DNA of 39,990 bases. It comes from a virus. Its lineage: Duplodnaviria > Heunggongvirae > Uroviricota > Caudoviricetes. Position numbers and translations under genes: made by a program. The notes beneath the pieces are model-generated. The model was not told the DNA's origin. It did no database searches and saw only the letters and a list, made by a program, of their open reading frames with translations. Position 1 is the stretch's first letter. Every line of letters begins with the position of its first letter. Shown here one piece after another: positions 31,251-31,866 of the stretch. Location: IMG/VR virus record IMGVR_UViG_641736163_000010; one strand, given 5' to 3'.

Positions 31251-31428
31251 CTGAAAAATGATTCTTTAAAATACCTGACATGTAATACAGAAAAAACACA
31301 AAACCATACCTTAAATAAAAACCTCATCATCAAGCAGATATGCATGGATAAACTACAAGACGAGATATAAACCACCCTGCATTTAAATAAACAATAAACA
31401 ACATCAGAAAAATAATTCTGCTCTATGG

Positions 31429-31455
31429 TTTACAATCAAAAATATCATTTATACT
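31429..31455 (+). promoter_or_regulatory. Candidate promoter (TTTACA-15 bp-TATACT) for orphan ORF 31496-31831
   Basis: Hexamers read from sequence; short spacer; very AT-rich surroundings. Confidence 0.3.
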
Positions 31456-31495
31456 TTTCAGAACATCACCAGCAAGGCATAAACAAGGAAACTAA

Positions 31496-31831
31496 ATGAA
31501 GTGGATTGTGATTGATACAGTTATCCAGCCATCATGCGGAATATCTTTTTCAGTCATATGGAGTAAAATAAAATTAATAATCTGGTATCAATCGGATGCT
31601 TTCTTACCTCTTGAAAGTATATTTACACTGACTCACACAGGCATCATGCTCAATAACAAAGTGCTACCTGTAACCATTTACAACGTAGTACCATTCAATA
31701 AAACATTCTGGAATTTAATCAAAAACAGCCAGGAATGCCCTACAAATACAGATAACGTATTGAATGAATGCTTTAATAACCGTTGCACTCTGCAAATATG
31801 TCCTTATGGGCTAAAACAACAAAGTCCATAA
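31496..31831 (+). CDS. Orphan AT-rich ORF (111 aa, Cys-containing, no recognisable domain) on the strand opposite the late operon
   Basis: AAGGAA SD 5 nt before ATG; strongly AT-rich codon usage; sits in the slot between tRNAs and nanS-p where Stx phages carry stx. Confidence 0.45.
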
Positions 31832-31866
31832 GGAGTTTACTCACATCTGACAAAATCAATATAAAC

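Follow-up and report, generated by a model that had tools for sequence, protein, structure and literature searches.

An AT-rich opposite-strand gene beside nanS-p in an Stx-phage-like late region is, by sequence, the IraM-family anti-adaptor gene iraL

The AT-rich ORF located between the tRNA genes and nanS-p, and oriented against the late genes, is by its relatedness to known genes iraL, a characterised prophage gene whose product blocks the adaptor RssB. Prophage-borne iraL is expected to be expressed in the lysogen as an anti-adaptor of the IraM family and to block RssB, with accumulation of RpoS; we assign this reading a probability of about 0.86. The same RssB effect in the present host, and activity of the allele found here (P39L), would be expected from what has been reported for E. 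coli CFT073. The gene is already known; it is ordinary, widespread cargo in its usual place, not a new occupant of the toxin slot. The window analysed is the whole stretch of DNA, 39,990 nt in length, and the features discussed here are collected in Table 1.

Table 1. Features of the iraL locus and the surrounding late region (positions are those of the window unless another record is given)
Feature	Position	Strand	Basis or comparison
nanS-p-type sialate O-acetylesterase, downstream slot border	29379..31250	-	DUF1737+SASA+DUF6645
PhoP-box-like direct repeat TGTTTA-N5-TATTTA, tentative	31384..31400	-	1 mismatch to KGTTTA-N5-KGTTTA
iraL promoter: TTTACA 31429-34, 15-nt spacer, TATACT 31450-55, start inferred at A31463	31429..31463	+	CFT073 RACE, geometry
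Shine-Dalgarno AAGGA, 6 nt before ATG	31485..31489	+	direct sequence reading
iraL coding sequence (111 aa + stop), predicted IraM-family RssB anti-adaptor	31496..31831	+	ORF list, NF007393, CFT073 comparison
P39L, CCT to CTT, codon 39 of iraL	31610-31612	+	comparison with JKHS016, CFT073
C-terminal Cys-rich tail, residues 81-107	31736-31816	+	12-member alignment
11-bp stem-loop over last codons and stop of iraL	31802..31833	+	RNA fold
STnc100 sRNA gene, copy 1	31857..32045	-	RF02076, 132.5 bits
Degenerate STnc100-like copy	32110..32285	-	RF02076, 30 bits, E=0.0016; repeat family D1
STnc100 sRNA gene, copy 2	32321..32514	-	RF02076, 138 bits
DUF3927 ORF, 38 aa	32603..32719	-	PF13064, E=5.8e-11; annotated in near-identical genomes
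Two tRNA genes: Arg(TCG) 32779-32855; CAT anticodon 32865-32940	32779..32940	-	ARAGORN
N6/N4 DNA methylase	32990..34039	-	late operon
Q-family late antiterminator	34614..35435	-	PF03589, E=1e-49
IraM-like ORF, 107 aa, ~73% identical to the window protein	L004 (NZ_CP062721.1) 6115-6438	+	O157:H7 Stx2c prophage

The ORF begins with an ATG codon, and its protein matches the NCBIfam family NF007393 ("anti-adapter protein IraM") with a score of 158.2 bits (cutoff 121). The match is full-length, with residues 1-110 placed on positions 1-113 of the 114 in the profile, and the same ORF carries the RefSeq name "anti-adapter protein IraM" in near-identical genomes. The protein is identical to IraL of CFT073 (c1429, WP_000871291.1) at 110 of 111 residues, and shows 61% identity to K-12 IraM over 107 residues. 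Membership of the iraL allele class requires a coding region that is, along its full length, at least 95% identical to that of CFT073 iraL, together with a conserved promoter region (PMC4045071). The window ORF belongs to this class, with differences from CFT073 iraL at 2 of 336 coding nucleotides (334 identical) and at 10 of 701 nucleotides when the promoter is included (98.6% identity). In comparison, only ~71% of the coding nucleotides are identical to those of K-12 iraM. [quoted passage not shown] 2014; PMC4045071). In view of the near-identity to this protein and of these published results, the ORF is already known and experimentally characterised.

The initial annotation had described the ORF as an orphan, which is contradicted by the NF007393 match and by CFT073 IraL. 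Its statement that the ORF has no recognisable domain holds for the current Pfam-A only, where a scan with E values up to 0.01 and up to 10 finds no meaningful match; NF007393 and PDB entry 8TWD both match strongly. The Pfam-A result says nothing against a known function, because the family lacks a usable model in the current Pfam copy. PF11183 (PmrD) is listed in precomputed domain tables for the window protein and all of its homologues, whereas no match to PmrD is obtained with hmmscan and the current Pfam-A even at E values up to 10; the discrepancy is one between Pfam versions or thresholds. The homology and structure searches that had been proposed were productive, finding NF007393, 8TWD and a PmrD-like fold. 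A PADLOC search with the ORF finds no defence-system match.

Three allele classes are present in E. coli, namely iraL, the O157/Stx2-phage class (~74.5% nucleotide identity) and K-12 iraM (~71%). In comparisons among these classes, dS ranges from 1.1 to 2.0 and dN/dS from 0.10 to 0.17, which indicates clear purifying selection on the family. The iraL class (at least 95% identity to the window) is found in about 1,420-1,430 of 5,426 complete E. coli genomes. The curated family match, this dN/dS ratio and the presence in more than 1,400 genomes place the ORF far beyond chance. Lack of conservation or interruption in related prophages, together with lack of a transcript, had been named initially as grounds for discarding the ORF. 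Instead, related prophages carry a conserved, intact copy of the ORF at this position, and the start of its transcript has been mapped in CFT073.

Chain A of PDB entry 8TWD, the complex of IraM(1-78) with RssB, matches residues 1-78 of the window protein in a phmmer search (E=2e-30). The AF2 model of the window protein, for which 16 family members were used and which is of only moderate confidence (mean pLDDT 61.7), has strands in residues 2-66 and a helix in residues 69-76. The pLDDT values are 67-83 over residues 1-70 and below 50 in the tail. A Foldseek search with this model finds 8twd_A as the top match (E=3e-7), followed by the PmrD structures 4hn7 and 2jso (probability 1.00). The predicted architecture is an N-terminal PmrD-like beta-barrel, residues ~1-78, followed by a short Cys-rich tail. 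K-12 IraM (YcgW), an RssB anti-adaptor induced by Mg2+ starvation through PhoP, has the same fold; it is described as PmrD-like (PMC10844676), in agreement with the Foldseek result for the window model.

Fifteen residues of IraM, in clusters I-III and at P66, are listed as contacts to RssB (PMC10844676). Eleven of them are identical in the window protein and the other four are replaced conservatively (T13S, H63N, I64V and L75I). Cluster I (I4, I6, W22, K26 and I42) is fully kept. There are also differences between the two proteins. [quoted passage not shown] Moreover, IraL has four extra residues (QQSP) at its C terminus. K-12 iraM is located beside the e14 element, with no STnc100 at gathering score.

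The C-terminal tail was cut off for crystallography and was called less conserved and flexible (PMC10844676). However, the motif formed by C81-P82, C92, C97 and I101-C102-P103-Y104-G105 is identical in all 12 aligned family members, and is the most invariant motif outside the barrel among them. The pattern C-P...C...C...I-C-P-Y-G is likewise invariant between K-12 IraM and IraL. The published description considerably understates the conservation of the Cys-rich tail in the IraM family. The tail may bind metal or have a redox role; with pLDDT below 50 in this region, the AF2 model gives nothing on a metal site. The window protein has five cysteines (residues 14, 81, 92, 97 and 102), rather than the six counted initially. 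A Cys4-CPFG arrangement recurs in a Salmonella homologue with 33% identity.

[quoted passage not shown] This sequence aligns to positions 31463-31494 of the window with 31 of 32 positions identical, which puts the inferred start 33 nt upstream of the ATG. The position of ACATCACCAGCAAGGCATAAACAAGGAAACCA in the window places the ATG at +34, in agreement with the "-100 to +33" promoter fragment of the CFT073 study (PMC4045071). The -10 element is located 7 nt before the inferred start, and the -10 element, the mapped 5' end and the Shine-Dalgarno sequence are the same in the window and in CFT073. The Shine-Dalgarno sequence and the promoter-like element credited to the ORF at the outset are thus both borne out. 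A generic sigma-70 scan, with spacers of 16-18 nt, gives four matches, which is chance level (2.9 expected). It missed the iraL promoter, whose spacer is 15 nt.

The PhoP-box-like repeat is located 63-79 nt upstream of the inferred iraL start. The homologous position of the O157 Stx2c allele has CGTTTA-N5-TGTTTA, likewise with one mismatch. About 5% of local shuffles yield a match of this kind, and the repeat is at most a weak lead. PhoP control carried over from iraM by homology was considered and rejected, as only the coding regions of K-12 iraM and iraL can be aligned and the promoter regions are unrelated. K-12 iraM is PhoP-controlled, from a promoter not homologous to that of iraL.

At the 3' end of the gene, the RNA fold of positions 31800-31900 has an energy of -39.1 kcal/mol (z = -5.3). 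The stem-loop there encodes QQSP, the four C-terminal residues that IraL has beyond IraM.

The order of the late region (Q-like gene, tRNAs, slot, nanS-p, holin, lysozyme and Rz), as read initially, is confirmed by domain and tRNA calls. So is the presence of a very AT-rich ORF of 111 residues opposite to the late genes, with a GC content of 0.345. The 245 nt upstream of the ORF have a GC content of 0.294, and the whole window 0.521. The AT-rich part of the slot is its low-coordinate 0.6 kb (0.29-0.35 as against 0.52 for the whole window). The slot between the tRNA genes and nanS-p spans 1,528 bp (31251..32778) rather than ~1.4 kb, and consists mostly of STnc100 sRNA genes, which the initial annotation had not seen. 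Past nanS-p, the minus-strand late operon contains a P21-type holin, a DUF1327 protein, a lysozyme and Rz. A Q-driven late transcript would run antisense through iraL. RefSeq places the start of nanS-p 15 nt further in, which gives a protein of 618 aa.

The sRNA STnc100 is already known; it is associated with prophages and related to PasD (bioRxiv 10.64898/2026.05.13.724894). Copies 1 and 2 in the slot score above the RF02076 gathering threshold of 47 bits and share the direct repeats D1-D4, ~467 bp apart. The degenerate copy is below the Rfam threshold and has a terminator-like hairpin at 32117-32136. Copy 1 is convergent with iraL, and its terminator hairpin (31866-31887 in the terminator scan) lies 35 nt past the iraL stop. 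CFT073 and the O157 Stx2c prophage carry the same convergent pair. The window has three tandem STnc100 copies, two full and one degenerate, each with its own terminator hairpin, and CFT073 and the Stx2c prophage have one copy. Over copy 1 RefSeq shows, in near-identical genomes, a partial pseudogene ('hypothetical protein') that is spurious. The tRNA gene with the CAT anticodon is called Met by ARAGORN, and Ile (lysidine-type) by RefSeq for the identical gene in near-identical genomes. There are two tRNA genes in the window and three (Ile, Arg, Arg) in CFT073 and the Stx2 prophages.

The iraL gene of CFT073 occupies the same place, in the late region of a lambdoid prophage (potB island), and is convergent with STnc100. 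The order there is Q, tRNAs, DUF3927, STnc100, iraL on the opposite strand, a nanS-p remnant and the holin. The two loci differ in the P39L substitution and in nanS-p, which is intact in the window and truncated in CFT073. In addition, the window has two tRNAs and three STnc100 copies, one of them degenerate, as compared to three tRNAs, one STnc100 and an IS200 in CFT073.

There is a close relative of this arrangement in Stx2 phages. In the O157:H7 Stx2c prophage the order is tRNA-Ile/Arg/Arg, stx2cA, stx2cB, STnc100, an IraM-like ORF on the opposite strand and nanS-p. The IraM-like ORF of Stx2-converting phages (for example phages 2851 and 1717, and WP_001303568.1 of the O157:H7 Stx2c prophage) has ~73% amino acid identity to the window IraL and the same orientation, with STnc100 on one side and nanS-p on the other as in the window. 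Its upstream region can be aligned with that of iraL, including the -10 area and the PhoP-box-like repeat. It differs in its length of 107 aa and in being directly downstream of stx2AB. By tblastn, 46 records of a phage collection contain the homologue, and at least 32 of them bear the name of a Stx2-, Stx2a- or Stx2c-converting phage. The site of the IraM-like gene is left without annotation in most deposited Stx2 phage records. That many of these genomes have such a gene, unannotated, immediately behind stx2B may interest specialists. In the literature, no functional study was found of the Stx2-phage iraM-like gene, nor of iraL in E. albertii.

Collinear alignment equates window positions 30102-32033 with the 5' half of nanS-p, the iraM-like gene and STnc100 of the Stx2c prophage. 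The stx2c segment of the O157:H7 record (~6689-8103) has no counterpart in the window. The insertion point of stxAB is between the STnc100 copy adjacent to iraL and tRNA-Arg, corresponding to ~32046-32722 in the window. This interval holds the degenerate STnc100 copy, STnc100 copy 2 and the DUF3927 ORF. A tblastn search of the window with the Stx2c A and B subunits gives chance-level matches only, the best of which (E 0.053) is outside the slot, and blastn against the Stx2c prophage finds no stx remnants in the slot. The largest slot ORF other than iraL is 89 aa, and no A and B gene pair on the late strand, as expected of AB5 cargo, was found in the slot. The statement that AB5-toxin-like ORFs are lacking here therefore stands. 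The reading of the ORF as the occupant of the toxin slot stands only in part. The ORF is located between the tRNAs and nanS-p, but a gene of this kind coexists with stx2, and the stxAB site is elsewhere. As the IraM-like gene lies beside stx2 in Stx2 phages, iraL is a neighbour of stx and not an alternative to it; by gene order, the anti-adaptor gene would be no substitute for the toxin genes.

A mode of action can be proposed, mostly from the literature. As a moron, iraL would have a sigma-70 promoter of its own that is active in the lysogen, and its transcription would not depend on the late operon, against which it runs. The initial annotation had proposed an uncharacterised lysogenic-conversion cargo; an independently transcribed prophage cargo is retained from this proposal, whereas the gene is characterised, as iraL. 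The beta-barrel would bind RssB, an adaptor of the response-regulator type, and cover the surface that recruits sigma-S. The face of RssB that is blocked by IraM is alpha4-beta5-alpha5 (PMC10844676). RssB would then be unable to pass RpoS to ClpXP, RpoS would accumulate during growth, and the general stress regulon would be raised. By analogy with CFT073 IraL, one residue apart, the window protein should bind RssB and stabilise RpoS. In CFT073, a fur mutation and a shift to 37 degrees C each increase iraL expression. In uropathogenic E. coli, higher RpoS in growth has been connected with stress resistance and with niche adaptation (PMC4045071), and the prophage anti-adaptor would let the lysogen keep more RpoS in growth.

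The main rival to full function is the P39L substitution, which might abolish or reduce activity; it lies three residues from the contact residue I42. The gene would then be iraL by descent, and this copy a hypomorph or null, or silent (for example through H-NS on DNA of 29-35% GC), with no effect on RpoS. Position 39 is Pro in 11 of 12 diverse family members, CFT073, JKHS016, K-12 IraM and the O157 allele among them, and Leu only in the window. P39L is the sole difference from strain JKHS016 over 701 nt. In a collection of 15 billion proteins, the exact Leu39 protein is found on one contig only, CH991859.1 (GCA_000155105.1), and the Pro39 form on at least 1,000 contigs. The region is also very AT-rich, and Battesti and colleagues reportedly described H-NS control of iraM in 2012. 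However, the reading frame, the promoter, the Shine-Dalgarno sequence and all the listed RssB-contact residues are intact, and a single loop substitution is often tolerated. Moreover, P39 itself is absent from the list of RssB contacts (PMC10844676). An inactive or silent copy is therefore judged improbable.

The resemblance to PmrD raises another alternative, that the window protein is a PmrD-like connector acting on a different response regulator, such as PmrA, and is not an anti-adaptor for RpoS. PmrD (PF11183; 4HN7), which protects phospho-PmrA, shares the small beta-barrel with IraL (PMC10844676), and PmrD and the IraM family both bind the receiver domain of a response regulator. The Foldseek matches to 4hn7 and 2jso and the precomputed PF11183 assignments for all family members would fit such a connector. 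In comparison, PmrD shows just 15% sequence identity to IraL, has another target, lacks the Cys-rich tail and gives no match in the current Pfam. The RssB contacts are kept in the window protein, and both RssB binding and stabilisation of sigma-S are known for its near-identical counterpart in CFT073. We consider a connector of this kind very unlikely. The location of the ORF, flanked by the tRNAs and nanS-p in an Stx-phage-type late region, had also suggested an uncharacterised secreted or toxin-like conversion factor, or a decayed remnant, in place of stxAB. This reading is refuted by the family assignment, to a characterised family, and by the co-occurrence of the gene with stx2 in Stx2 phages, and virtually no weight is left to it. 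A remnant is also at odds with the intact ORF and with the purifying selection on the family (dN/dS 0.10-0.17). A secreted or membrane protein, for which a signal-peptide and transmembrane check had been proposed, was rejected. No hydrophobic segment like that of a signal peptide or membrane helix is present, the highest Kyte-Doolittle mean over 19 residues being 1.44, and the AF2 model has a beta strand of the barrel at residues 2-11. For annotation, a false lead is removed with the identification of the gene as iraL, and the AT-rich opposite-strand ORF by nanS-p in lambdoid late regions can be read as IraL.

The entry for the Leu39 contig reads "anti-adapter protein IraM [Escherichia albertii]", and the host appears to be E. 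albertii rather than E. coli. RssB is 81-100% identical in the 80 species of sampled Enterobacteriaceae listed (Escherichia, Citrobacter, Salmonella, Klebsiella and others); E. albertii is not among the matches listed, and a phylogenetic bracket suggests that RssB is present in this host as well.

A broader proposal is that the convergent pair of STnc100 and iraL or its iraM-like counterpart is a conserved lysogenic-conversion unit of Stx-type late regions, those of Stx2a and Stx2c phages included. Its activity would be responsive to metal or to PhoP, through the Cys4 motif (C81, C92, C97 and C102, with ICPYG) or the PhoP-box-like repeat. This is speculative and on balance doubtful. If it were true, Stx2 lysogeny itself would rewire the proteolysis of RpoS, and the Q-dependent antisense late transcription would turn the gene off upon induction.

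Several other genes of the window were noted. An adjacent pair on the minus strand, at 37530-38636 and 38614-39264, matches PADLOC models for RmrA (E=6e-105; HTH and M78-peptidase-type) and RmrT (E=5e-25), and is a candidate RmrTA-type anti-phage defence or toxin-antitoxin system; it lies in the early/immunity portion of this prophage. The gene at 25604-26671 (+), in the stretch from Rz to the small terminase, encodes a 'beta protein' (PF14350; PADLOC PD-Lambda-2_C 4e-32, beta 3.5e-10). It is convergent with, and overlaps, a gene at 26613-27233 (-) for a sce7726/'cll'-like protein (8e-31), and the two are likely a defence-type moron. The right end of the window (39325-39990) coincides with the end of contig CH991859.1 and cuts a gene for an rve-type (IS) transposase; an IS element has probably interrupted the early region of the prophage or broken its assembly.
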